Notes: generated by a model from the letters alone, not told the origin. DNA of 20,000 nucleotides from an uncultured virus (IMG/VR IMGVR_UViG_3300047160_026157) (IMGVR_UViG_3300047160_026157), one strand, 5' to 3'; positions 2,793-19,857 are shown, counted from the stretch's first letter. Numbers and translations: made by a program.

Positions 2793-2820
2793 AACAGGGG
2801 GCTCACGCCCCCCGTTCGCC
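2793..2820. terminator. GC hairpin between convergent genes (bidirectional terminator or REP-like element)
   Basis: AAC-A-GGGGGC-TCAC-GCCCCC-C-GTT-CGCC lies between stops at 2790 (+) and 2820 (-). Confidence 0.55.
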
Positions 2821-3986
2821 TACAGGAAGTTCACGTGCGCCGCCGGCCGGCGGAGCGCTTCCAGGGTGGTGTTCTGCGTCGAGAGCCGGCAGGCGGGCGG
2901 ACACGCCTCGGCCGGCCGGATCGACCGTCGCACCAGGCGGGCCCGCTCGGAGTGCCAGACCTCGGGGAAGGTTGCCTGGTTGAGGTCTCCCAGGCAGAAC
3001 TCCTCACGCCCTTGCCCGTGGCAGCAGATATAGACCTTGCCCTCCGCGCTGATGGCCGCCTGGAGGAAGTGGGCGTGGCAGGCGGAGTAGGTCACGCCGA
3101 GGTCGGGCCGGCCGAGCAACTGGTACTTGTCATGGCTCCAGAGGATGCGGAAGTCGTCCCGCTCGAAGGCGGTCCTGGCGATCCGGTAGGCCGCTTCCAG
3201 GTCGCGGAAGTTGAGGGGCTCAGAGCCCATGCCGCCGCGGAGGCTGGGGTCATCGCCGGGCGGCAGGACCAGCGGGCGGAACTGCAAGTAGTCCAGGCCG
3301 GGAATGCCGGCACAGAAGCGGGCCATCTTGTACAGGTCGCCGCGGCTGACACTGGCTTTGTCCGTCAGGAAGCCGACGCCGACGGTGGGCCAGCACAGAC
3401 CTTGTTTCCAGCGGCGCTCCCTTTCTCTGGCGAAGTCGGCCAGGCGGAAGACCACCTTCCTGAACTCCCCCGGGCCCCGGCCGTGGAAACGGCTGAACGT
3501 CTCTGGGTCGTAGGCGTCGAGCGAGACGCGGACCCAGGAGAAGCCCGCGTACTCCTCCTCGGGCGTCAGGAGCGAGCCGTTGGTGATGAGGGCCGTGTCC
3601 AGGCCGCGCTCCCGGGCCTGGCCGGCCAGGGTCAGCAGGGCGTCCTGGCCCCACAGCAGCGGCTCCCCGCCGCCGGAGAACGTCAGGCCGCGGACCCCGA
3701 AGTCTGCCAGCTCCCCGACCAGGCGCACGGCCAGACTCAGGGGCATCATGTCCTTCTTGACGTTCACCCAGGCCCCGAAGGTGCAGCCGGGGCAGGCGTG
3801 GTTGCACAGCCACGTCAGGTCCAGCTCCACGGTGACGGGCGGCGGCAGCTCGCCCGCCTGCCAGGCGGCCAGGCGGTCCAGGTGGCGGAACATCTTGTCG
3901 CCGGCGAAGGGGTCCGGGCCCACTTGCTTTTCCGAGTAGTCAACCGCCGGAGCGGGGCTCTCGACCATCGGCAGGGCATTCAGCAT
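2820..3986 (-). CDS. Radical SAM protein with C-terminal SPASM/twitch domain
   Basis: CNHACPGC (CxxxCxxC), FSGGGEPLL, ITNG, VRVSLDA; C-terminal CHAH..AEGKVYICC..LGDL..FPEVW..CPPACR. Start assigned to ATG 3986, overlapping the upstream stop. Confidence 0.92.
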   Translation of the reverse strand: MLNALPMVESPAPAVDYSEKQVGPDPFAGDKMFRHLDRLAAWQAGELPPPVTVELDLTWLCNHACPGCTFGAWVNVKKDMMPLSLAVRLVGELADFGVRGLTFSGGGEPLLWGQDALLTLAGQARERGLDTALITNGSLLTPEEEYAGFSWVRVSLDAYDPETFSRFHGRGPGEFRKVVFRLADFARERERRWKQGLCWPTVGVGFLTDKASVSRGDLYKMARFCAGIPGLDYLQFRPLVLPPGDDPSLRGGMGSEPLNFRDLEAAYRIARTAFERDDFRILWSHDKYQLLGRPDLGVTYSACHAHFLQAAISAEGKVYICCHGQGREEFCLGDLNQATFPEVWHSERARLVRRSIRPAEACPPACRLSTQNTTLEALRRPAAHVNFL

Positions 3987-4519
3987 GGCGGCTCCCCCTG
4001 GAACTCGTTTTGGACTACCTCGAAGAAGGCGATCAGCTCGTGCGCCGCCCCCGGGGCCCAGCGGAGAATCAGCTCCCTGTCCCTGTCGGGGTAGAGGGCC
4101 TGGATCTCGTCGAACTCCATCGAGGGCACGTACTCGTCGCGTAGCCACCTGAGCCGCCTTTGGCCGCGGCCGCCCCAGTGCTCCCGGGCAAAGCGGTCAA
4201 GAGCGTCGGTCCAGTGGCGGAACTGCCGGACCGACAGAACGTGGCGGTGGCCGGGGGACAGGGCCATCGGGTTCAGGAAGTGCGGCACGCGGATCTCGAC
4301 GGACGCGCCAACCTTGCACACCCGGGCAATCTCCCAGAGGAGGACCCGCGGGTCGGCAACGTGCTCCAGGCAGTGGGAGCTGAAGACGGCTTCCACGCTC
4401 TCGTCCGGGAAGGGGAGAGGCCCGGCGTCCAGGTCGCAGTGGACGTCAGCCCCGGGGCAGACATCGACGTTCACGTGGCCTTCCCGCGGGTAGCGGCCGC
4501 CGCCCAGGTCGAGCTTCAT
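3980..4519 (-). CDS. Class I SAM-dependent methyltransferase (Methyltransf_11-like)
   Basis: MKLDLGGG..VNVD..LPFPDESVEAVFSSHCLEH..EIARVCKVG..IRVPH. Confidence 0.9.
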   Translation of the reverse strand: MKLDLGGGRYPREGHVNVDVCPGADVHCDLDAGPLPFPDESVEAVFSSHCLEHVADPRVLLWEIARVCKVGASVEIRVPHFLNPMALSPGHRHVLSVRQFRHWTDALDRFAREHWGGRGQRRLRWLRDEYVPSMEFDEIQALYPDRDRELILRWAPGAAHELIAFFEVVQNEFQGEPPC

Positions 4520-4725
4520 CGCCTTCCCCCCGCGTGCCCGGCCCGGAAGGTTTCCATCGCCTGGACGCTCCTGGTTGCCATCTGCCAGCCCTTGCAGAAG
4601 GGCGCGCCGCAGTCGCAGGGGACCGCCTCCAGGCCCACTTTGGGCAGGTCGCCCTGGGTGACCCCGCACCTCTCGGCGTAGTAGCGCTCGAACTCCTCCC
4701 GGGAGATGTGCTTCCTGTCGCTCAT
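4516..4725 (-). CDS. Small Cys-containing hypothetical phage protein (MSDRKHISREEFERYYAERCG..PCDCGAPFCKGWQM)
   Basis: ATGA overlaps with both neighbours; CxC-x4-C motif. Confidence 0.7.
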   Translation of the reverse strand: MSDRKHISREEFERYYAERCGVTQGDLPKVGLEAVPCDCGAPFCKGWQMATRSVQAMETFRAGHAGGRR

Positions 4726-6071: not shown

Positions 6072-7442
<1,371 letters not shown>

Positions 7443-7451
7443 CGGCCGGCC

Positions 7452-9401
7452 TCACATGGCGTCGATGACGACCACTTCCAGGTCGTCCACCCACAGCCCC
7501 GTCTTCTGGTCGTAGCGGCGCCAGAACGCCTGGGAACCGTTGGCGTCGGAGCTGCCCGTCAGGCGGAACAGGTCCTCCCACGGCACCTCGTCGAAGACGC
7601 AGTAGGCGCCGGCCCCGACGCGCAGGAACACGACCGAGCGAGAGGGCCCCGTGGCGCTCTTCACAATCTCCGACTTGCCCGTTGACGGGTCGATGAAGGT
7701 CCACGTGCCGTAGGAGCCGCCCTGGCAAAGGCAGGGGGTGTCTGCGTGCCCCGAACCGGACCCGGAGCCCGACCCGGAGCCGGACCCGGACCCCGCCGGC
7801 GGTGGCACGAACAGGGGCCAGACGGGCAGGTCCAGGTCGCGGGTCTGGTAGGCCGGCCAGCAGCCGGGCTTGCCGCAGATGGACCCCTCGGTGTAGGTGA
7901 CCTGCTGGGGCTGGTCGGAGTCTGAAACCTTGACCCACGAATACTGCCGGGCGTTCCCGCCGTAGGTCTTGTTCAAAAGGAGGGCCGCCCCCGGGTCAGG
8001 CGGCGGGGAGGGGCCGTGGAGCAGCGTCTCCAGCTGGTCGGCAAAGGGCCCGCGCTCGCAGCGGGTCGAGACGCGGTCGAAGGTGTGCTCGTACTCGACC
8101 ATCTCGGTGTGCCCCTCCATGAGCCAGTTGAGGGCCCCCTCGTAGCGGGCCGTCACCCGGCCGAGCTGCCAGAGATACCAGTCGGTGGCGATCTGCGTGG
8201 CGAGGGTCTTCAGGTAGACGGGGTCCGAGGAGCAGGCCGTCGAGAGCAGACTCTTGGCCCCCGCGTAGCCGACGACGCCCTGGTACTGCGGTAGAGCGAG
8301 GTCCTGGAGCACGACCCGCACGGTGTACGCCGGCGTCAGCGGGTCCGGGGCCGAGCGGGGGAAGCTGACCGCCACGGCCCAGGGAGCCACGGCGTTCAGG
8401 TCCTGGCCCGACCCGGAGCCCGAGCCCGAGCCGGAGCCCCAGGGCGCCGCAATGTCCATCTCGTGGCCGGCGATGCGGAGGTTGGGGTAGGTGCCCGTCG
8501 TCTCCAGGGCCAGGTTCGACACCATCGCGTTCAAGCTGCTCGTCGGGGAGTAGACGAGCACGCGGCCGTCCAGGGTCCTGACCACGCGCTGGCCGACCGA
8601 GGCGGCCACCATGTCCAGGAGCACGGGGGCCGCCCGGTACGGGAGTGTCAGGCTGGCCGGCGGGCTGCCGTAGGCCGCCGGCACGGGGTCGTGGAAGATG
8701 GTCACCCCGAGGTTAGAAGCGAGCTGCTGATAGACCCCGTCCCAGCTGGTGATGCCCTGCCAGACGGTCCCCTGCTCCTGGACGCTGAGGGCCCCGGGCC
8801 GCAACCACCAGAAGTATCTCTCGTCTACCAGCGTCAGGAGCCAGAGGGCCCCGGGAGGCACCCAGGTGCCGGACCCGGACCCGGACCCGGACCCGGACCC
8901 GGACCCGGAGCCGGAGCCCGACGGCGGGATGAAGACCAGACGGGCGACGCGCGACAAAGGGCGGGGCGGCAGCATGAACATCTGCGTCTGCACCTGGCGG
9001 CGGCCGTCGTTGATGAGGAGGGGTTGGCTGCGGTAGGCGCCACTGCCGGACCCGGAGCCCCCCGACACGTAAACCGCCGTGCGGATGGCTTGAAGCTCGT
9101 CCTGATCGACCAGGTAGTGGGCGTGGGCGAAGCGGCTGGCTCCCTGCGGCCAGCGGAGGACGCCCAGGTGGAAGGGCTCCCGGCCGAACCAGCCCCGCCA
9201 GCCCATGTAGGGCGGGTACGCAGTGGGCACCGTGCCGGGCGTGGGGAAAGGGCCGTGGACGCCGGCCAGGTCCCCCATCTGCCCGGGGAAGGTCCGCTCC
9301 ACCCATTCGACCAGCCAGGCCGGGTCGAGAAGCTCGGTCAGCTCGGCCAGGGTGCCCGGCGCCGGGGGCGTCAACTCCACGCCTGCGAAGGAAACGCTCA
9401 T
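7452..9401 (-). CDS. Large probable tail/baseplate protein with four Gly-Ser tracts (start MSVSFAG at ATG 9401)
   Basis: LWLLTLVDERYFWW and LLDMVAASVGQRVVRTLDG resemble tail hub-type motifs. The upstream extension of the ORF overlaps the + gene at 9525 and is discarded. Confidence 0.7.
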   Translation of the reverse strand: MSVSFAGVELTPPAPGTLAELTELLDPAWLVEWVERTFPGQMGDLAGVHGPFPTPGTVPTAYPPYMGWRGWFGREPFHLGVLRWPQGASRFAHAHYLVDQDELQAIRTAVYVSGGSGSGSGAYRSQPLLINDGRRQVQTQMFMLPPRPLSRVARLVFIPPSGSGSGSGSGSGSGSGSGTWVPPGALWLLTLVDERYFWWLRPGALSVQEQGTVWQGITSWDGVYQQLASNLGVTIFHDPVPAAYGSPPASLTLPYRAAPVLLDMVAASVGQRVVRTLDGRVLVYSPTSSLNAMVSNLALETTGTYPNLRIAGHEMDIAAPWGSGSGSGSGSGQDLNAVAPWAVAVSFPRSAPDPLTPAYTVRVVLQDLALPQYQGVVGYAGAKSLLSTACSSDPVYLKTLATQIATDWYLWQLGRVTARYEGALNWLMEGHTEMVEYEHTFDRVSTRCERGPFADQLETLLHGPSPPPDPGAALLLNKTYGGNARQYSWVKVSDSDQPQQVTYTEGSICGKPGCWPAYQTRDLDLPVWPLFVPPPAGSGSGSGSGSGSGSGHADTPCLCQGGSYGTWTFIDPSTGKSEIVKSATGPSRSVVFLRVGAGAYCVFDEVPWEDLFRLTGSSDANGSQAFWRRYDQKTGLWVDDLEVVVIDAM

Positions 9402-9524
9402 CCAGCCGCGTATAGCCGCCCGGGGGGCCCGGGGGCAAAGCAACCCCGGTTTGCGGGCGCCCGCCAGAGGGGTGCAGACTGCCGGAACCTGTCTGGCGCC
9501 CGACACCTCGCGGAGGCTACGGAG

Positions 9525-10265
9525 ATGACCCAGGGCGACCTGCTGAGTGCCTTCCAGGCCCGCGGCGTGGCGGACTTCTTCGAGCCCCTCAACTGGGAGC
9601 GGGCCCTCACGCTGGCCGTCGCCCTGGCCCTGGCGGCCGTGGCCCTGGCGGGGCTCAGGCAGCTCGGCCGGGGCGGTGTGGCCCTGGCCGGGCTGTCGTG
9701 GCGGCGGCTGGTCCGGCCGGCCGGGCGGTTGACAGCCCGGGTCCTTTGCTGGCCCTTCCGCAGGGCCCCGGTGCCCGAGCCCGAGCCCAACCCCGTCATG
9801 GACTGGGTGCTGCTGTCCTTGCAGGACCCCGACGCCGTGTGGACCGACGAGACGCAGACCCTCCTGACGAGTGCCCTGGAGGCCCAGCTGGGCCTGGAGC
9901 CGATGACGCAACAGGACTCAGACCGCGTCTGGCGTCTGACCTTCCTTCGCACGGTCGATGACTGCATGAACGTGCTGGCCGACCTGGACGACGAGGAGAA
10001 GGGCACGGCCCTTCAGGCGGTCATCGCGGCCCGCGGCCGGGTCGAGAAGCGCGACCGCGACGCCCGGCGGGCCGAGGTGCTGGGCCGGCTGGCCCGGCGG
10101 TCCGAGTCGTTCCCGGGCGTGGCCCCGGACACGCAAGCTCCCGCGGTGCTGCACGGGCCGCCGCGGCCGGTCAACATCGGGGCCGCGCAGCCCCTGGGTT
10201 CCCCTCCCCAGCAGCCGGCCAGCTGCGAGCCGGGCGCCGGCAAGACGAAGCGTTACCCCTTCTGA
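9525..10265 (+). CDS. Hypothetical membrane protein (246 aa)
   Basis: GGAGG upstream of ATG 9525; hydrophobic segment ALTLAVALALAAVALAGL. Confidence 0.7.
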   Translation: MTQGDLLSAFQARGVADFFEPLNWERALTLAVALALAAVALAGLRQLGRGGVALAGLSWRRLVRPAGRLTARVLCWPFRRAPVPEPEPNPVMDWVLLSLQDPDAVWTDETQTLLTSALEAQLGLEPMTQQDSDRVWRLTFLRTVDDCMNVLADLDDEEKGTALQAVIAARGRVEKRDRDARRAEVLGRLARRSESFPGVAPDTQAPAVLHGPPRPVNIGAAQPLGSPPQQPASCEPGAGKTKRYPF

Positions 10266-11101: not shown

Positions 11102-11800
11102 ATGATCGAGGTGGTACTGATGGCGGCTCTGGCCGGGCCCGCCCAGCAGACGCGGACGGCCCTGGCCAGCCCGGTCACGAGCCGGGCGGTGGCGCCGCCG
11201 GCCAGGAAGCCGGGTCTGCCCCAGGTGCGGCTCCAGGAGCGCTTCACGCAGGGGACCGGCGAGCAGACGGCGTGCTTCTTCTTCTTCGGCCTGCGTCCCC
11301 GGCCCGACCCCTTCCTGTACTTCCAGCTCCAGGGCCTCCGGGACGGCCAGATGCAGCTGGAGTTCCAGCAGCAATTGCAAACGCAACTACTGCTCCAGCT
11401 GCTCGCCCAGCGGCAGTACATGCAGCCGCAGATTGACCTCCGGATCGGCGGCGGCTACAGCTACGGCGGCGGCGGCGGGGGGTTTGTCGGCGGCTTCTCG
11501 GGCGGTTGCGGCCCCTTCGGCTGCCCCCCGACGCCGACGCCCTACGTGGGCCTGGATTCAGCGGGCGGGCCCGGGATGGGGGGTGCCGGTGTGCAGCCGC
11601 CCGGCCTGAGCGGACCTGGCCAGGGCGGTAGCCCGGGCCTTCCTCCCGGCCTGATGCCCGGCGGCGGCTACGGCCCGCCCCCGGGCGGCGGCTACGGTCC
11701 GAGCCCTGGGGGCCCGGCGCCCGGGATGGGTGCGGGCCCGGGCGGCTCGCCGGGTTACATTCACTACAGCCGCGGCCGCCTGGCCGTCCAGAGGCGCTAG
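11102..11800 (+). CDS. Secreted Gln/Gly/Pro-rich low-complexity protein
   Basis: AGGAGG RBS, ATG 11102, short hydrophobic leader, Q-rich then GP-rich repeats. Confidence 0.7.
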   Translation: MIEVVLMAALAGPAQQTRTALASPVTSRAVAPPARKPGLPQVRLQERFTQGTGEQTACFFFFGLRPRPDPFLYFQLQGLRDGQMQLEFQQQLQTQLLLQLLAQRQYMQPQIDLRIGGGYSYGGGGGGFVGGFSGGCGPFGCPPTPTPYVGLDSAGGPGMGGAGVQPPGLSGPGQGGSPGLPPGLMPGGGYGPPPGGGYGPSPGGPAPGMGAGPGGSPGYIHYSRGRLAVQRR

Positions 11801-11810
11801 GAGGCGAGCT

Positions 11811-11933
11811 GTGGCGGAGGGGCCCAGAGACGACTGGCCGGGCGTGGTCTTCTGCGTCCTGGTGCTGTTCGTCCTGGCCGTCTGCGCGGTGGGCCCCTCG
11901 TTCCTGTTCTTCCTCAACGGGATGTGCTGGTGA
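11811..11933 (+). CDS. Small single-pass membrane protein (40 aa)
   Basis: AGGAGG RBS, GTG start; MAEGPRDDWPGVVFCVLVLFVLAVCAVGPSFLFFLNGMCW. Confidence 0.6.
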   Translation: MAEGPRDDWPGVVFCVLVLFVLAVCAVGPSFLFFLNGMCW

Positions 11934-11968
11934 GATTCTGGGGCATGCCAAGAAGGAAAGGGAAAGCC

Positions 11969-12058
11969 GTCAGTACCGCCGGCTGAAGCCGGCGGCTTGT
12001 AGCTGGGGCAGTAGTTATCTGCTCGCCGCTACTAAATCAGGGCCACTGACAGGGGCCC
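11969..12058 (-). ncRNA. TnpB omegaRNA/reRNA-like scaffold at the element right end
   Basis: Hairpin GGGCC-CCTGTCAGT-GGCCC whose loop GTCAGT complements the terminal ACTGAC (pseudoknot), then a GTAGC/GCTAC stem and the terminal hairpin. Confidence 0.55.
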
Positions 12059-12216
12059 CTAGTGACCAGACCGGCCACCGTTGAACGAACCCTGTATCCT
12101 GTCGGCCTAACTGTTTACCCGGAGGGTGCCTTGTGGCCACGGCTCGCTCAACCCGCTTGTGCTTTTACCACCCGGCCGCGTGTTCGGCCGGTAACTCCCT
12201 AGCACTGACAGGGGGT

Positions 12217-12245
12217 AATCTACCCGGGTGGTCCGGGCTAGACAA
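12217..12245 (-). promoter_or_regulatory. sigma70-like promoter inside element 1
   Basis: TTGTCT-17 bp-TAGATT on the minus strand; conserved in element 2. Confidence 0.65.
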
Positions 12246-12320
12246 GGCTGGTAGCGAAACTTACCCGGAGGCGGCAATTCCTCCGCTGCCTGAAGGCAGC
12301 GGTGTCCTTGCCGAAGATTT

Positions 12321-12500
12321 ATGAGCACGGTTCCCGCCGCGATCAAGTGGGAGTTGAAGTGCTCCTGCGACACCTGCAAGAAGGTGCTGCACGAGAGCTT
12401 GTCCTCCAGCGAGGAGCAGTTCCGCGAGAACAGCGCGAAGGCGATGACCGCCTCGGAATTGCATGACTGCAAGGGTGCGCCGAAGCAGACGGGGTCCTGA
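12321..12500 (+). CDS. Small Cys/His protein (59 aa, MSTVPAAIKWELKCSCDTCKKVLHE..HDCKG)
   Basis: Manual translation; ATG immediately follows the element end; GC3-rich; CxCxxC..HxC. Confidence 0.6.
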   Translation: MSTVPAAIKWELKCSCDTCKKVLHESLSSSEEQFRENSAKAMTASELHDCKGAPKQTGS

Positions 12501-12503
12501 GCC

Positions 12504-12617
12504 ATGCAGAGCGACGGACCGCCGAGTGACTGGAGCGTGCTGACGCTGCTGGTGCTGATCGCCCTGGTGCTGCTGGCCTGGCTGGTGGGGCCCTACCTCC
12601 TCTCCCGGGTCCTTTGA
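12504..12617 (+). CDS. Small single-pass membrane protein (37 aa)
   Basis: Manual translation MQSDGPPSDWSVLTLLVLIALVLLAWLVGPYLLSRVL; similar to 11811-11933. Confidence 0.6.
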   Translation: MQSDGPPSDWSVLTLLVLIALVLLAWLVGPYLLSRVL

Positions 12618-12636
12618 CTACTCGGAAAAGCAAGTC

Positions 12637-12993
12637 GTGCTGCCTTTCTTCCTGACCTTCCTGGCGCCGGCCCCCCTGCCGCGGGAGAAGCCGGTCACCC
12701 AGCTGACCCCGGGTGCCTACACGGCACACTGGGGCGGGCGGCCCTTCCCGGTGCAGCTGGGCAAGGATGGCAGCTGGCACTGCCGCTGGGACGGGGTCGA
12801 GTGGTCCGGGGCCTGGGAGTGGCGGGCCGGGGAACGGATGCTCCACGTCAAGGAGAGCCCCGCAACGGGGCCCGAGGACTGGTTCTCGTGGGAGGCGACA
12901 CTGGACGCAAAGCTCCAGGGCGAGGCCCTGATCCTCTCGTCGGGGCCGCCCGAGACCTGGAGCTACCAGCCCGTCGAGTTCCAGCGGAAGTGA
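12637..12993 (+). CDS. Secreted Trp-rich beta-barrel-like protein (118 aa)
   Basis: Hydrophobic leader followed by APAPLPR, a post-signal motif I recall from Planctomycetota proteins. Confidence 0.65.
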   Translation: MLPFFLTFLAPAPLPREKPVTQLTPGAYTAHWGGRPFPVQLGKDGSWHCRWDGVEWSGAWEWRAGERMLHVKESPATGPEDWFSWEATLDAKLQGEALILSSGPPETWSYQPVEFQRK

Positions 12994-13306
12994 GGGAGCT
13001 ATTGGCCTCACCAAGCCGCACCATGCGATCCTCCGCCGCCAGGGCGGGCTGGCCGGCCACCGCGGCCGGCCGGTCGAGGACTGGGTCATCCAGGCCCGGC
13101 GGGAGATCGCCGCCGAGGTGATCGCCGAGCTGGCGGGCCAGAGTGGCCCTCTGGGCCCGCGGGCGGCCCGCGACGCCGTGGCCCTTGTCCTGGAGCAGGT
13201 TGCCGAGCGGCTGCGAGATTGAGCTATGAAGATTTCCGGCATTGGTGCGCGCCCCTCCGCTGGCTTTCGTCTGGAGGGGGCCGGATCAGCGGACGGGAAT
13301 GGCTGG

Positions 13307-13531
13307 CTACTCCGATGCCTCTAGCTCGCTCACCAGGGAAACCATCGTCGTTTCTAGGGCTGCGGCAAGCTGGCTGAGGACCAGCAGGGTAAGGTTTCGC
13401 TCCCCCCGTTCCACAAGGCTGATGTAGGTACGGTGCAGGCCCGCCTTGTCGGCAAGCGCCTCCTGACTCAACCCTTTCTGCTCTCGCCGCTTGCGCAGCA
13501 CTTTCCCGAACCGTGTAGCTAGGTTGTCCAC
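13307..13531 (-). CDS. XRE-family HTH regulator, R-M controller (C-protein)-like
   Basis: FGKVLRKRREQKGLSQEALADKAGLHRTYISLVERGERNLTL; HRTY recognition helix. Confidence 0.9.
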   Translation of the reverse strand: MDNLATRFGKVLRKRREQKGLSQEALADKAGLHRTYISLVERGERNLTLLVLSQLAAALETTMVSLVSELEASE

Positions 13532-13577
13532 TTTGCCGATACACCCCCGATGGGCATAGTGGACAAGACAACTGACC

Positions 13578-13607
13578 TTGACGCCACAGACTATAGTAAG
13601 CGATACT
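13578..13607 (+). promoter_or_regulatory. Putative MTase promoter with a C-box-like operator in the spacer
   Basis: TTGACG-18 bp-GATACT, with CAGACTATAGT (13587-13597) between the boxes. Confidence 0.5.
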
Positions 13608-13658
13608 TCATCCCTGTTGTGAACCGCTGTACAGGAGGAAGCCTTCTCCGGGGAGACG

Positions 13659-14597
13659 ATGGAAACGAACGGCAGCTTGAACGGCCACGCTCAAACCCCC
13701 GCCTGGGAAGTCCTGCAAGGGGATGCCTTCGACCTGTTCGACAGGTTGAAGCCCGGCAGCGTAGACCTTCTCATCACCAGCCCGCCGTATTGGGGGCTGC
13801 GTTCCTATGGCCTTTCGCACAACTGGAATATCTGGAACGACTGGCTGAAGGAACACGACAAGGAGGAACTGCCGTCCTACGGCTGGTACAGATCGCAAGG
13901 CGGGTGTCTGGGGCTAGAGCCGACTCCAGACTGGTACGCATCGAACATCACCAGCATCTTGGGGAAAGCCTGGGATGCCCTCAAGCTGTCTGGTAGCCTC
14001 TGGCTGAACATTGGGGATACCTACTTCGCCCGCTGGTCAAGCATCAGGCCAAAGGGGCGGCAGGGACTCGCCGGCCCGGATCGGGAGCGTAGGCGTGTGC
14101 CGATGGGTGGGTATCGGCAGGAGAAGCAGCTTCTCCTGATCCCCAGCAGGACAGCGATTCGGATGCAAGAAGACGGGTGGATTTTGCGGAACGATCTGAT
14201 CTGGTACAAGCCGAACGTACCGCCCCGGCATGAGAAGGATCGGCTGCCCCTGACCCATGAACACTTCTTCCACTTCGTCAAGAAGCCCACGGAGGGGAGG
14301 GCTACCTACTACTACGACAGGGACGAAGTGGAAGAACCGGGACATGACGTGGTGAAGCTGAACGTGGCTCCTGGCACGAACGGCCACAGCGCCACATTCC
14401 CCCAGGCGCTAATCACGCCACGGATTCTGAGCAGTTGCCCGAAGGGCGGGTTGGTGGTTGATCCCTTCTGCGGAACAGGAACGGCTCTGATCGTGGCAAG
14501 AGAACACGGACGGCGTGCGGTCGGCTTTGAGATTACCCCGAAGTTCGCTGAGGTCGCCAGGGAAGGACTTCGGGCTGTACATGTTTCGCTGTTCTGA
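13659..14597 (+). CDS. Beta-class N4-cytosine/N6-adenine DNA methyltransferase
   Basis: DLLITSPPYW (motif IV) N-terminal; HSATFP and DPFCGTGT (motif I) C-terminal; GGGAG RBS. Confidence 0.93.
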   Translation: METNGSLNGHAQTPAWEVLQGDAFDLFDRLKPGSVDLLITSPPYWGLRSYGLSHNWNIWNDWLKEHDKEELPSYGWYRSQGGCLGLEPTPDWYASNITSILGKAWDALKLSGSLWLNIGDTYFARWSSIRPKGRQGLAGPDRERRRVPMGGYRQEKQLLLIPSRTAIRMQEDGWILRNDLIWYKPNVPPRHEKDRLPLTHEHFFHFVKKPTEGRATYYYDRDEVEEPGHDVVKLNVAPGTNGHSATFPQALITPRILSSCPKGGLVVDPFCGTGTALIVAREHGRRAVGFEITPKFAEVAREGLRAVHVSLF

Positions 14598-14626
14598 AAA
14601 AGACGGGCAGGGCGGCGGGAGGGAAA

Positions 14627-15095
14627 TCACCGGCGGGGCCGGCGGTGCTGGGTGACGGGGCGCTGCCCGCCACAGCAGGGCTTCCGGGCCGGCTGGACCG
14701 TCGCAGGACTTGCAGGAGTGGCAGGAGTTGCACGGACTACCATGCTCGAACCGCACGGGTCACGGTGGAGGTTCAGAATGACCGTGCCGGTGCAGCAGGG
14801 AACCGTGGCGGTACAGGTGCAGTCAGTGGTGGTGGTCTGGCCGTCCGTCGTCCCGTTGAAGCTGGGCGGGTTGCAGGAACAGTTACAGCGACTATCCGGG
14901 TTGCAGTTGTTCGCTATCGGGTTCCATGACTGCGCCATGTCGATCCACTGGTATGTACAGGTTCCTGGGTTACTGCAATCGAACGGCCACTGCATGGCGA
15001 TGGGGATGTTGATATTCAGAGTTTCCATATCGCACAAGCCGCCGGGTAACTCAACCTCCCCGAAGCCGGTGTTGTCGGCCCCGCAGACAACAGGC
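14627..15095 (-). pseudogene. 5'-truncated Cys-rich protein fragment, homologous to the C-terminus of 6072-7442
   Basis: GTCTYQW..WNPIANNCN..CSCNPP..TTTDC..TVPCCTGTVILNLHR aligns by eye with GTCSWGC..WFPVSQGCN..CGCDPP..ATTQC..TVPGCC..GAVAVRVMR. Confidence 0.65.
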
Positions 15096-15198
15096 CCCCG
15101 AAGAGTTCCTTGTTGAAGTAGGACCATGCCGCCTGGTAGGCGCGAAACTGTTCCACTGTGGGCGGGGGCGGTTCTGGCTTTGGCTTGCTCTTGGCCAT
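15016..15198 (-). pseudogene. Truncated SprT-like metalloprotease N-terminus
   Basis: AGGAG RBS; PTVEQFRAYQAAWSYFNKELFGGLL resembles the SprT-like N-terminus. The resemblance ends at ~15090 and there is no HExxH motif. Confidence 0.6.
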
Positions 15199-15368
15199 GC
15201 TCATGCTCCTGTGTGTCCGGGCTGCCATCCTGCCAGGTACACCTGCGTCCCTCGCGTTCAGGATTTTCTGCCCGGCATCTCACTATACGGGCGCAAAGCC
15301 GCCTGGAAAGGCAAAAAACCCCTCAACTTGGCTGCGAAAAAAAATCTGAAATCCACGGGTACTGATGT

Positions 15369-15427
15369 GCCAGTTGTAAAGGGCGCAAGTCCTTGTGGGA
15401 GAAGGGGTCGCGCCCTTTACAACTGGC
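15369..15427. repeat. Perfect 18-bp inverted repeat with a 23-bp partly symmetric spacer
   Basis: GCCAGTTGTAAAGGGCGC (15369-15386) / GCGCCCTTTACAACTGGC (15410-15427). Confidence 0.9.
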
Positions 15428-15475
15428 CAATTGTAACCATGCCTTACGGCGGCTCTTGCGGCGAAAAAAAGTTCA

Positions 15476-15504
15476 TTGACAACCCCTGCGGCCCTGCCTA
15501 AACT
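15476..15504 (+). promoter_or_regulatory. Near-consensus sigma70 promoter
   Basis: TTGACA-17 bp-TAAACT with an upstream A-tract. Confidence 0.75.
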
Positions 15505-15555
15505 CCAATCGACGGGACGCGAAACCCACACACACGGCAACAGGAGAGCAACACC

Positions 15556-15792
15556 ATGAACCTGAAAGACTTGGCCACTACCCAGGCGCTCGTGACTATG
15601 GCGATGGAGCAGTACCACAAGGACTGTGAAGGGGCCGGCTTCATGGCCGAGATGCCCTCTCTGCGCGACTCCACCGTGAACGTCAAGACCGGGCGGGTGT
15701 TCTTCAACCGCACCCGTGGCCACCTTTGCAGCTACGTTCTCAAGGACGACAAGATGGTGCGGGAGGGTGACATCTACGGCGAGAAACAGTGA
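15556..15792 (+). CDS. Hypothetical protein (78 aa)
   Basis: AGGAG RBS and a strong promoter; the stop codon lies inside the terminus of element 2. Confidence 0.75.
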   Translation: MNLKDLATTQALVTMAMEQYHKDCEGAGFMAEMPSLRDSTVNVKTGRVFFNRTRGHLCSYVLKDDKMVREGDIYGEKQ

Positions 15793-15904
15793 CGACTCCG
15801 CTGCCTGAAGGCAGCGGCTTCTCGGGGCAGTACCCGCTGGTACTTATGCTGTGACACACACAACTGCCTTTCGACCCTGTGTGGCCTTTTACCCGCTGGC
15901 CCCG

Positions 15905-16435
15905 TCAGCAGGATCGGTAGGCCAGTATGGTTCGGAGGAAGGAAAGGAACTCTTCAGGCGTGCGATTCCTCTTCATCTCGTTCACTTCCCGGCAGACCCA
16001 CTCGATGTTTGTCGGGTCGGAACGAAGTTCGGGATGCTGGTCAAGGGGCTTGATGTGATCGACAGAGTCGTTGACCCCGAGGACGAGTGCGAAGCCCGTG
16101 TAAGAGCATCTGCCCCCTTGCGCCTGCAATCGCTCTTTCAGGGCTGTCCAGGACCGGCGAGAGCCGAGCCTGTTTTTCGCCTTGTTCTTGAGGTAACAGG
16201 TTTCGCAGTAGCGGTGGTGAAGGCCGGCGGCCTTCAGAGACTCAAGATAGGGCGTTTTCCCGCAGTGGGAACACAAGCCTTGAGAAACGTTCCTGCGATA
16301 CCGCCTGATCTGTGCTTCCCTGTGTCCCGTGTGACACGGCTTGCACCGTGTCGTTCCTGGACTCGGAGGGGATTTGCCACAGACCGTGCAAAGGCCCTGA
16401 GCGATCCTGCGGTAGTAATAGGTGTCTGCGACCAT
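15905..16435 (-). CDS. HNH endonuclease with two tandem N-terminal C4 zinc fingers (176 aa)
   Basis: GLCTVCG..RCKPC and GLCSHCG..YCETC, then QGGRCSYTG..SVDHIKP..NIEWVCREVNEMK. Confidence 0.9.
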   Translation of the reverse strand: MVADTYYYRRIAQGLCTVCGKSPPSPGTTRCKPCHTGHREAQIRRYRRNVSQGLCSHCGKTPYLESLKAAGLHHRYCETCYLKNKAKNRLGSRRSWTALKERLQAQGGRCSYTGFALVLGVNDSVDHIKPLDQHPELRSDPTNIEWVCREVNEMKRNRTPEEFLSFLRTILAYRSC

Positions 16436-16439
16436 AGGT

Positions 16440-16590
16440 CCCCGTCCAGGCCAGCCCCTGTCCTACAGGGGTTTACCGAAACCGTGTTCGGTGTCGTTCC
16501 AGGGAATCCGGTTGGGTTGGACCCCGCTTGTGGCGGGAAGGCCCTTTGGGCATGTACCGTGTACCACCGGCTTCCCCCGGCAACGAAGCA
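16440..16590 (-). ncRNA. Putative structured leader RNA upstream of the HNH gene (homologue at ~12077-12210)
   Basis: Motifs shared in the same order with element 1 (CCGG..TGGTA, CACAAGCGGG, CACC-hairpin-GGTAAAC, ACAGGG) and an equivalently placed helix. Confidence 0.55.
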
Positions 16591-16595
16591 AGTGC

Positions 16596-16623
16596 AGTCT
16601 ACCCGGGCGTTCCGGGAAGACAA
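16596..16623 (-). promoter_or_regulatory. sigma70-like promoter inside element 2
   Basis: TTGTCT-16 bp-TAGACT on the minus strand. Confidence 0.65.
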
Positions 16624-16700
16624 GGTTGGTAGCGAAACTCTCTCGGAGGGCGGCGATTCCCCCGCGGGCTGAAGCCCGCGGTACCCTCGCCGCGGTCGTC

Positions 16701-16949
16701 ATGGAGGAGGGCGGCCACCCGCACCTGTTTGGCCGCAAGCCGGGCGACACTGGCCGCGGGTGCTGCTACGACGAGGCGGAGGCGGAGTTCCTGCGTGCCT
16801 GCGAACAGTACCGCGAGCGGCAGCACCTGAAGTTCATGAAGGCGACGGACTACTTCAGGGTGGTGATCGAGCTGGGCTACGAAAAGCCCCCCGCCCAGAG
16901 CCCGGCCGGGACGACGCATCCGGCAGGAGAACCAGGCGGGGGGAAGTAG
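16701..16949 (+). CDS. Small conserved protein (YDEAEAEFLRACEQYRERQHLKF..VVIELGYEK)
   Basis: Resembles a recurrent Planctomycetota family (Y..EE.EF..A...YK....FPT......LGY.K), from recall. ATG abuts the element end. Confidence 0.75.
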   Translation: MEEGGHPHLFGRKPGDTGRGCCYDEAEAEFLRACEQYRERQHLKFMKATDYFRVVIELGYEKPPAQSPAGTTHPAGEPGGGK

Positions 16950-17022: not shown

Positions 17023-17310
17023 TCAGGACTTTTTCCGGCGTCTGGCCTTCCGTTCCTTCTCTTCCTTTTCTTCTCTCTCCCGCTGCTCGCGCTGGCGGAT
17101 CTGCTCCGCAATGAGGGGATGGGAGCGGAAGCGCCGCTCGTAGGCGTCCAGGCAATCCTCGCACAGCTCGCCCGCCTGGGCCGCGGCCGCGGAGCGGGGC
17201 AACGGTTCGCCGGCGTCCAGGCGGTCCTGCCAGTGCTCGTGGCAGAGCCGGCGGCCGCCGCCCTGGGGCAACGGCACCACCGCCACGTCGAACGATGGGT
17301 TCCAGGTCAT
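17023..17310 (-). CDS. Hypothetical Zn-binding protein with a charged tail (alternative start 17346)
   Basis: LCHEH..LCEDC; E/R/K-rich C-terminus. Confidence 0.6.
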   Translation of the reverse strand: MTWNPSFDVAVVPLPQGGGRRLCHEHWQDRLDAGEPLPRSAAAAQAGELCEDCLDAYERRFRSHPLIAEQIRQREQREREEKEEKERKARRRKKS

Positions 17311-17317
17311 GGGCCGA

Positions 17318-17569
17318 TCATCTTTCCTGAGAGGCTTGATCCACATAGGGCCCCCAGCGGTCCGCCTTGATCGTGTCGTTGCCGTTGACCCATTCCATCG
17401 CCATCCACTCGGCGTCGCAGAGGTCAGCGCACGCCCCGGTGGTGTAGATCACCGGGCCGCCGGCGCCCTTCTGGACGTTGGCGAACCACTGGCCGTCCCG
17501 GGGGAAGGTGACAATCGCGATCCGCGTCTTGCCCTTCTCCTCCTCGCTGTCGTCCTGGCACTTCTTCAT
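17318..17569 (-). CDS. Hypothetical protein (83 aa)
   Basis: AGGAGG RBS; ATG 17569 overlaps the upstream stop (ATGA). Confidence 0.65.
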   Translation of the reverse strand: MKKCQDDSEEEKGKTRIAIVTFPRDGQWFANVQKGAGGPVIYTTGACADLCDAEWMAMEWVNGNDTIKADRWGPYVDQASQER

Positions 17570-17851: not shown

Positions 17852-18055
17852 CTATCCCTTTCCGTCGCTGTAGCCGCACTTCGAGCAATGGCACCTCACC
17901 GGCAACGGTTTGGAGTCGTAGGACTTCCGCTTCACGACATGGCCGCATTCGAGCGTCAACCGCCACTCCTGGCGGTCGGCGGCCGCCACGGTCATCCACG
18001 CTGGCCGCGGGATGGCTTCCAGGTTCACCACCAGCTTGAGAGGCTTGATCCACAT
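17852..18055 (-). CDS. Small zinc-ribbon protein (LTLECGH..CHCSKC)
   Basis: LECGH..CxxC pattern; first gene after the AT-rich intergenic region. Confidence 0.65.
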   Translation of the reverse strand: MWIKPLKLVVNLEAIPRPAWMTVAAADRQEWRLTLECGHVVKRKSYDSKPLPVRCHCSKCGYSDGKG

Positions 18056-18138
18056 AGGGCGCCCCCAACGGTCGGTCTTGGTGAGCGGGCCGTCTACACC
18101 TTAGCTTATTCGCTCTGGGCGTGTTTTACACAAGGAAA

Positions 18139-19351: not shown

Positions 19352-19414
19352 CTCTCACACGAAGTGATATCACTTCGTGTGAGAGACAGGTCTCACACGA
19401 AGTGATATCACTTC
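19352..19414. repeat. 34-bp perfect palindrome plus a 24-bp partial second copy
   Basis: CTCTCACACGAAGTGAT|ATCACTTCGTGTGAGAG (19352-19385); TCTCACACGAAGTGATATCACTTC (19391-19414). Confidence 0.95.
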
Positions 19415-19425
19415 AGGGGAATTGC

Positions 19426-19857
19426 ATGTCTGAGCCCTCCGTCTCGCACCGCCGTGTCTGTTGCGTCCGCCTCCCCTCCGACGTGGACCGGGCCCTGCGG
19501 GCTCGCGCTGCCGGGGCGGGCCGGGGCTTTAACGACGAGGCGGTCGCCGCCCTCCGCGTGGCCCTGAACCTGCCGCCGCCCGAGCCCCGCCTCACGCCAG
19601 TGGAAGCGGCGGTGATGGCGCTCCTGGCCGCCCCGATTAGCGAGGTGGACTTCCTGGCCTGGTCGAACTTCCGCCGGCCGCCGCGGGGCGACGGCTGGCG
19701 GCCTTACTCCTACCTGGCGGACCGGGTGCCGGCCAGCCATGACCGGCGGCACAACGCCTGCGGCCGGGCCGTCCGCCGCCTGGAGCGGCTGGGGCTGGTC
19801 GAGGTTCGCTACCGGCGGGAGCGGGCCCGCTGGGTGAGGCAGAGGGGGCCGGCATGA
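19426..19857 (+). CDS. Arc/ribbon-helix-helix DNA-binding protein with a possible C-terminal winged helix
   Basis: VRLPSDVDRALRARAAGAGRGFNDEAVAAL; C-terminal RAVRRLERLGLVEV; AGGGGA RBS. Confidence 0.8.
   Translation: MSEPSVSHRRVCCVRLPSDVDRALRARAAGAGRGFNDEAVAALRVALNLPPPEPRLTPVEAAVMALLAAPISEVDFLAWSNFRRPPRGDGWRPYSYLADRVPASHDRRHNACGRAVRRLERLGLVEVRYRRERARWVRQRGPA

Follow-up and report, generated by a model that had tools for sequence, protein, structure and literature searches.

Two look-alike stretches on the minus strand of a DNA from an uncultured virus (IMG/VR IMGVR_UViG_3300047160_026157) lie inside non-autonomous IS200/IS605-type mini-transposons that are without a transposase. We refer to the whole 20,000-nucleotide stretch that was analysed as the window, and to the two units as element 1 (positions 12320-11969, 352 bp) and element 2 (16700-15789, 912 bp). 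Element 1 encodes no protein and is PATE-like, while element 2 contains the gene of a zinc-ribbon HNH endonuclease. An original prediction, made from the sequence alone, had described one conserved structured leader RNA shared by both. Our results support the presence in element 1 of a conserved, strand-specific, structured RNA-like domain that is independent of any open reading frame (ORF). By position and by analogy, we tentatively read the element 1 type as a promoter-driven guide-RNA cassette of the omegaRNA type that runs through the right end, a reading in which we place somewhat less than even confidence. In the best explanation that we can offer, the shell of element 2 also belongs to this family and is more divergent, and its interior RNA region is different and loosely related.

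The two units are recognized by their ends. A hairpin of the form CCGC-NNN-CTTCAG-NNN-GCGG, with a 7-bp stem, occurs exactly four times in the window, each time on the minus strand (16662-16681, 15798-15817, 12283-12302 and 11976-11995), and these copies fall two to a unit, bracketing each exactly. Element 1 is thereby ordered as hairpin, box, RNA and hairpin, and element 2 as hairpin, box, leader, HNH gene and hairpin. The subterminal hairpin at the left end (LE) of element 1 (CCGCTGC-CTTCAG-GCAGCGG, 12283-12302) has homologues that adjoin TnpA, TnpB and IscB genes; that of element 2 (CCGCGGG-CTTCAG-CCCGCGG, 16662-16681) was recovered by motif scan, by BLAST and in the alignment of left ends. 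The right end (RE) of element 1 (11969-11995) comprises the hairpin CCGCCGG-CTTCAG-CCGGCGG (11976-11995) and TACTGAC (11969-11975), which would form the right boundary of the element; a 34-nt match links it to the RE of L284, a TnpB element. The 3' domain and right end of element 2 (15789-15904, z -3.94) include the hairpin CCGCTGC-CTTCAG-GCAGCGG (15798-15817) followed by AGTCGTCAC, and match the RE of another locus, L271, over 38 nt. The right ends have a common pattern, in which ACAAG or AGAAG is followed by the CTTCAG-loop hairpin and then by 7-9 bases ending in GAC, CAC or TAC. Both ends of a unit are alike and in the same orientation, and the stems of the end hairpins covary between copies, the RE hairpin at four pairs.

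The same ends recur in viral contigs beside TnpA, TnpB and IscB genes. A scan with the LE hairpin and its 3' flank returned 11 loci. In L087 the gene of a Y1 transposase, TnpA (PF01797, E 1.4e-41), follows the hairpin after about 60 nt; the hairpin precedes tnpB in L088, L089 and L092, and an RNA clearly akin to that of element 1 in L086. A second scan, with the pattern GGCAAGGA-N9-CTTCAG-N8-GGAAT, located the same left end (GGCAAGGA-stem-CTTCAG-stem-AGGAAT) in 38 viral-contig loci. An IscB homologue adjoins the hairpin on the opposite strand at 27 of the 38, and TnpB on the same strand at 3; the 8 left ends with neither include the place of L086, four loci that are cut short, and L237, L244 and L249. 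Pfam searches of the neighbours confirmed both IscB (RRXRR at 1.2e-58, plus HNH) and TnpB. A further scan, with CTTCAG-N8-GGAAT-N-GCCGC, gave 27 loci, with true hairpins in four of them: L257, L262 (the same as L137), L271 and L274 (the same as L236).

The insertion site is also consistent among these units. The first base of element 1 (12320) comes immediately after CAT (12321-12323), as does that of element 2 (16700) after CAT at 16701-16703, the target of the two units being (T/C)CAT. The target, (T)TCAT or CAT, stands directly 5' of the LE in both elements, in L137, in L271 and in most of the 38 loci, with TCAA in L086 as an exception, and the DNA before it is unrelated between the oriented loci. 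The three copies of the element 1 type (element 1, L137 and L086) have different flanks, which fits transposition and marks L137 and L086 as separate insertions; no empty site was seen. As a separate observation, in both elements, and likewise in L137 and L271, the CAT abutting the LE is the ATG of a small ORF that reads away on the plus strand (12321-12500 and 16701-16949 in the window). With TCAT as target, ATGA on the other strand, such elements may often be placed before start codons, severing genes from their upstream signals.

Searching the window by tblastn with TnpA, TnpB and IscB gave no match, and the ORF lists show no transposase within the units. Soil-metagenome contigs from four runs cover the window in fragments, with no joints and no informative variants in the RNA regions, and blastn against phage records found no match. 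The frame of both units is that of a described class, namely protein-less or nuclease-carrying non-autonomous IS200/IS605 elements.

The left ends also contain a promoter-like site. An upstream box of 48 nt is shared by the two elements (12224-12271 and 16602-16649, 77% identical), and BLAST extends the match to 96 nt at 81%. The site in element 1 (12217-12245) consists of TTGTCT (12240-12245), a 17-nt spacer and TAGATT (12217-12222), and that in element 2 (16596-16623) of TTGTCT (16618-16623), a 16-nt spacer and TAGACT (16596-16601); either spacer holds the inverted repeat CCCGG-N5-CCGGG. When six left ends are aligned, the -10 hexamers of element 1 (TAGATT), element 2 (TAGACT), L086 (TACACT) and L271 (TACAGT) fall in one column, and the same column reads TATAAT in L284, 8 nt before the ATG of tnpB. 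Because of this alignment, the box is predicted to be an inward-reading, sigma-70-like promoter built into the LE of this IS family. The two stretches resemble each other because both lie inside shells with a homologous LE, an internal promoter and a homologous RE. The original prediction, whose observation is partly confirmed, had not seen this transposon frame. A pattern of 21 nt taken from the box had no match in viral contigs; one match in genome contigs and two in metagenome contigs, in AT-rich or coding DNA, were set aside as chance.

Within element 1, the 5' domain of the RNA (137 nt, 12078-12214) is modelled as an outer stem (P0), a hairpin (P1), the sequence GGTGGTAAAAGCAC and a 12-bp helix (P2) that encloses two small hairpins and GGTAAAC. 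The 3' domain (11996-12077, z -2.40) is a series of three hairpins, the last of which closes with GUAGC/GCUAC just before ACAAG. The helix that had been proposed here, GTTGAGCGAGCC/GGTTCGTTCAAC (12152-12141 with 12091-12080), indeed forms 12 bp with two G-U pairs within the minimum-energy fold. Its proposed restriction to one strand is likewise borne out: the conserved U-G pairs and the two G-U pairs of P2 fit the minus strand only, and because of such pairs the sense strand of the 5' domain folds better than its complement (-58.5 versus -45.9 kcal/mol, z -3.12 versus -0.22). An 11-nt direct repeat, CCCTGTCAGTG, is also present on the minus strand, once at the 5' edge of the domain (12202-12212) and once in the second 3' hairpin (12042-12052).

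We compared this domain with other loci by means of two covariance models, R1, built from element 1 alone with a hand-set structure, and R2, built from three sequences (element 1, L137 and L086). R1 matched L137 with 75 bits (E 5e-16) and L086 with 49 bits (E 5.5e-10). The two loci are units of about 340 bp that contain no ORF; each has LE and RE hairpins of its own, and flanks unlike those of element 1. The earlier statement that the RNA persists without an ORF is thus strengthened, the domain being conserved and strand-specific in element 1 and present in two more ORF-less copies. In the model-fitted alignment of the three sequences, 91.3% of the cells are paired, as opposed to at most 45.6% with slid partners. 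Changes on both sides occur in 8 of 35 pairs (2 in P1 and 6 in P2), none of 500 shuffles reaches the observed values, and two U-G pairs are conserved in all three copies. The mean column identity of alignment A6 is 80%. Each copy continues with three hairpins and then the RE hairpin (z -5.55 in L137 and -5.62 in L086); the shape of this series is common to the three copies, and its sequences are barely alike. No further member was found among the 171 loci searched or in seven viral contigs. Scanning for GGTGGTAAAAGCAC gave at least 119 loci, and among the matches listed only L098 (the place of L086) and L137 are real.

The original prediction could assign the RNA to no known family, and our searches agree with this. 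Rfam gave no match at gathering scores over the whole window and nothing relevant at E up to 10 over 11800-16900, and its ribozyme and group I intron (IStron-like) models did not match these RNAs. As a positive control, the HEARO model (RF02033) detected its RNA in the IscB element L285 at 87 bits against a cut-off of 83.

We propose that transcription would start at the LE promoter of element 1 and run inward, through the structured interior and the RE hairpin, into the flank. The resulting RNA of about 245 nt would comprise the conserved 137-nt 5' domain, the three sequence-variable hairpins and the RE hairpin. A TnpB-family nuclease, encoded elsewhere, would use this scaffold, with the flank beyond 11969 as its guide; it would cut the empty site and thereby preserve the element. 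Cutting of the empty site with retention of the element has been demonstrated by others for IS200/IS605 elements. The guide-RNA reading draws on the strand and the direction of the RNA, towards the right end, which agree with the layout of omegaRNA (reRNA) as judged from the G-U pairs and the predicted promoter. It draws also on the strand-specific structure and on a precedent in the same IS family. This precedent is L244, about 420 bp long (oriented positions ~893-1312 of an IMG/VR contig), which has both ends of the family and no ORF. Its retained RNA region is 86% identical over 256 nt to that of the HEARO omegaRNA in L285; despite this identity to a scoring region, L244 itself stays below the Rfam gathering score of the HEARO model. 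Finally, in the portion of Meers et al. 2023 (PMC10055086) drawn on here, PATE elements are said to "often encode omegaRNAs", usable by TnpB in trans.

Several observations weigh against the guide-RNA reading. A promoter scanner calls neither of the two sites, each of which agrees with the consensus at 8 of 12 positions and lies below the cut-off. The covariation comes from three sequences in an alignment that leans towards the structure. Moreover, the minimum-energy fold of L086 itself is without P2, and the covariation of P2 rests mainly on element 1 versus L137. None of TnpB, IscB and TnpA is found in the contigs of L086, L137 and L271, all of which are fragments, as is the window; TnpB is absent from contigs G001, G002 and G004. 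R2 found no match in five contigs with TnpB or IscB elements that have these ends. Compared with the 3' end of tnpB in L284, the 3' hairpin region minus the RE hairpin scores no better than shuffles, 212, 153 and 387 of 1000 of which reach the score of element 1, L137 and L086, respectively. We detected no homology to a TnpB scaffold beyond the RE, of which only the 34 nt match L284; the scaffold of another TnpB clade, outside those sampled, may yet correspond. Furthermore, conservation of the RNA is highest in the 5' domain, which lies at a distance from the presumed guide. This would be unexpected for a TnpB omegaRNA, in which the guide-proximal part matters most.

The same distribution of conservation speaks for an explanation that we regard as distinctly possible, if rather less probable, namely that the RNA of the element 1 type is cargo in its own right, a small RNA of about 140-160 nt that ends at the first downstream hairpin. 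Rather than guiding a nuclease, such an RNA would, for example, regulate the transposon family, a host target or a defence system, and the mini-transposon would be just its vehicle. The 5' domain, to which the R1 scores and the A6 identity given above apply, is then the RNA proper, the hairpins downstream hold their shape and not their sequence, the unit has a promoter-like site of its own, and the domain has no likeness to the TnpB and IscB guide regions of same-ended elements. Nevertheless, no target, partner or U-tract terminator is evident at element 1, no Rfam family matches it, and protein-less IS200/IS605 units elsewhere retain guide RNAs, as in L244 and in the PATE elements described in the relevant part of PMC10055086. 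The interior may also act as DNA, through single-stranded intermediates or the binding of TnpA or host factors, or be a decaying remnant, with no functional RNA at all; this we consider quite improbable. IS200/IS605 elements are indeed mobilized in single-stranded form, with ends that function as DNA hairpins (PMC10055086); GC-rich DNA folds readily, and the 5' domains of L086 and L137 have weak z values in their own folds (-0.52 and -1.24). However, in DNA the conserved U-G and G-U pairs would turn into weak G-T pairs, with A-C mismatches in the complementary strand, the promoter-like site is kept at a fixed distance, and the parts known to be recognized by TnpA in this family are the ends and not 137 nt of interior. 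Of these readings, the guide-RNA one is still our most likely for element 1.

As to element 2, the original prediction saw one structured leader family, preceding the HNH gene of element 2 and surviving alone in element 1. We judge this view unlikely. The motifs on which it was built are all present on the minus strand where it placed them. CACAAGCGGG occurs at 12152-12161 and 16523-16532, its only two exact copies in the window, and the exact words of at least 6 nt common to both leaders, in the same order, include GGTGGTA, CACAAGCGGG, GGTAAAC and ACAGGG. Downstream of the -10 hexamer, the collinear chain of shared words amounts to 30 nt as against 16 +/- 5.7 in the null. Of 2000 shuffles, 30 score at least as high, and so do 27 of the 1492 other 155-nt windows taken from these 20 kb (1.5-1.8%), so that the likeness of the leaders appears to exceed chance only marginally. 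In addition, a hairpin with a variable stem, after GTT(A/G)C and before (G)GTGGTA or GTAAAA, is common to element 1, L137, L086, element 2 and L271, and the left ends and promoters are homologous. On the other hand, gapped local alignment of 12078-12214 with 16436-16590 is no better than shuffles (z 0.2), and R1 and R2, with filters off, do not match the element 2 leader (16436-16595) at E up to 10, nor do they match L271. CACAAGCGGG itself is placed differently in the two folds: in element 1 its partner is the 5' end, whereas element 2 has it within a local hairpin, of which it makes up the loop and the 3' arm.

A conserved structured leader RNA shared by both elements is not upheld, since the models built from element 1 do not match the leader of element 2. 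Likewise, the assertion that the helix sequences differ while pairing is retained is not demonstrable for homologous positions of the two elements. At best, the two RNAs are distant cousins. MAFFT alignments of the two elements, which put the motifs out of register, and a MAFFT-based consensus fold of the 3' modules, which recovered the RE hairpin only, were set aside. So were the 67 viral loci returned for CACAAGCGGG-N28-52-GGTAAAC, all of them unrelated and mostly coding.

The element 2 leader (16436-16595) contains a P1-like hairpin (CCGG-GGGAAG-CCGG), TGGTACACGGT, two small hairpins and the imperfect helix of the original prediction, GTCCAACCCAACC/GGCTGGCCTGGAC. This helix does pair at 10 of 13 positions. 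It is absent from the minimum-energy fold (z -0.30), and forcing it costs 9.6 kcal/mol. Element 2 has its nearest relative in L271, which is about 450 bp long and has no ORF. The leader is partly homologous to L271, and the LE, promoter and first hairpin of the two units are homologous (score 86 versus a shuffle mean of 26). TGGTACACGGT, TCCAACCCA and GGCTGGC(C) are common to both, in this order. Long insertions are present in L271, whose best fold contains no long-range counterpart of the helix proposed for element 2. By eye, the sequence that follows the stop codon of the HNH gene, GGGGCCAGCGGG, resembles TGGGCCAGTGGG after GGAC in L271. From this likeness, the HNH gene may be an insertion into such a unit, or L271 may be a deletion of one.

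The gene within element 2 (15905-16435) encodes a 176-aa protein with N-terminal zinc-ribbon repeats and an HNH endonuclease domain (Pfam HNH, E 0.001). Its HNH motif is intact, with D126, N143 and N152 invariant. The protein belongs to a large family (2613 representatives at E <= 0.001), and in PHROG it matches ordinary phage HNH and endonuclease VII families (1035, 144 and 589). A search of viral contigs with a 10-sequence alignment gave 15 loci with relatives, while a scan with the single protein gave none. The HNH gene is probably a homing-type nuclease cargo of element 2.

Alternatively, the HNH protein could be an RNA-dependent nuclease that uses the flanking RNA as guide or specificity factor, forming a new OMEGA-like class analogous to IshB, of which element 1, L086, L137 and L271 would be guide-only satellites, rather than of TnpB. 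We find this very unlikely. It is true that the RNA, the nuclease gene and the RE lie in one shell, ordered as in TnpB units, that an ORF-less relative exists in L271, comparable to the HEARO-only units for IscB, and that the nearest solved domains by profile search are Cas9 HNH domains (E 5e-5). Yet the arrangement is a single instance in a family of the size given above. The seven closest of the 15 viral relatives (L004-L010) give no match to the RNA model, which also speaks against the notion of a leader tied to the HNH gene, and the nine read (L004-L012) show neither a shared motif nor a shell hairpin upstream. There is no Pfam match to an RRXRR or PLMP domain in the 176-aa protein, BLASTP against the IscB of L285, from the same IS family, shows no similarity (E 0.76), and the PHROG families are ordinary ones.

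Other features of the window lie outside the two units. The region 13200-16650, probably an acquired island, has a G+C content of 0.57-0.63, compared with 0.67-0.75 in most other window DNA, and contains an XRE-type helix-turn-helix gene (13307-13531, minus strand), a divergent N4/N6 DNA methylase gene (13659-14597, plus strand), a Cys-rich ORF and element 2. An intergenic 26-bp inverted repeat, 88% complementary (GCCAGTTGTAAAGGGCGC...), is found at 15369-15427, and its weak matches to miRNA families and to R1 and R2 were rejected as spurious. A perfect 24-nt inverted repeat on TCTCACACGAAGTGATATCACTTC is duplicated in tandem at 19353-19428, as a pair of 38-nt units that are 79% identical. It lies just ahead of a ribbon-helix-helix-like ORF (19402-19857, plus strand), reaches into the start of that ORF, and looks like an operator. 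A 28-nt repeat (17328-17355 and 18037-18064, 96% identical) lies over the starts of two small paralogous minus-strand ORFs (17023-17346 and 17852-18055), which begin with MWIKPL and neither of which has a family match. Finally, a radical SAM/SPASM protein (2820-4148, minus strand) adjoins a methyltransferase (3980-4669, minus strand), and long ORFs with Gly/Ser/Pro-Glu repeats (6998-9800) stand beside this pair. The region 2820-4669 and its neighbours are possibly a peptide-modification cluster.

If the guide-RNA reading of element 1 is true, protein-less, promoter-driven guide cassettes would exist in a soil bacterium or phage with a core unlike HEARO or the TnpB and IscB guide regions of same-ended elements. 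The known range of omegaRNA scaffolds would be widened, with a homing-type HNH nuclease riding in the same type of shell. More generally, what looks like a repeated "promoter plus structured leader" can turn out to be the interior of a mini-transposon, and CTTCAG-loop hairpins are the sign to watch for.

Non-autonomous IS200/IS605 units that carry guide RNAs, with or without a nuclease, are already known. Element 1 resembles the PATE of the Geobacillus stearothermophilus ISGst families, as these are presented in the consulted part of Meers et al. 2023 (PMC10055086), in being short, in having both subterminal hairpins with a structured RNA inside, and in containing no transposase or nuclease gene while same-ended relatives carry TnpB or IscB. 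It differs from them in its 137-nt 5' domain, which has no detectable likeness to the guide regions of same-ended TnpB and IscB elements and for which guide use is a prediction, and its source is a high-GC soil organism. With IscB/HEARO (RF02033) elements the units share CTTCAG- or CTTTAG-loop hairpin ends, ACAAG before the RE hairpin and, in L244, an ORF-less RNA-only derivative. In contrast, HEARO is encoded on the opposite strand, beginning at the right end (in L285 it adjoins the RE), and the RNAs of the window score nothing against the model that detects L285.

Element 2 recalls IshB, in the portions of PMC10734217 and PMC11610941 drawn on here, in that a small HNH-only protein lies in an IS200/IS605-type shell beside a structured RNA. 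IshB is defined in that part of PMC10734217 by PLMP together with an IscB-type HNH. The element 2 protein has zinc-ribbon repeats, no RRXRR or PLMP and no likeness to the IscB of this IS family, and it is for these reasons not IshB as so defined. It also resembles the free-standing phage HNH homing endonucleases, with which it shares the HNH motif and N-terminal zinc ribbons. Unlike them, its gene sits inside a transposon shell, between the RNA region and the RE. Compared with these systems, the new features are an RNA domain without a match in Rfam or among the guide regions of the sister elements, and a zinc-ribbon HNH nuclease as cargo.

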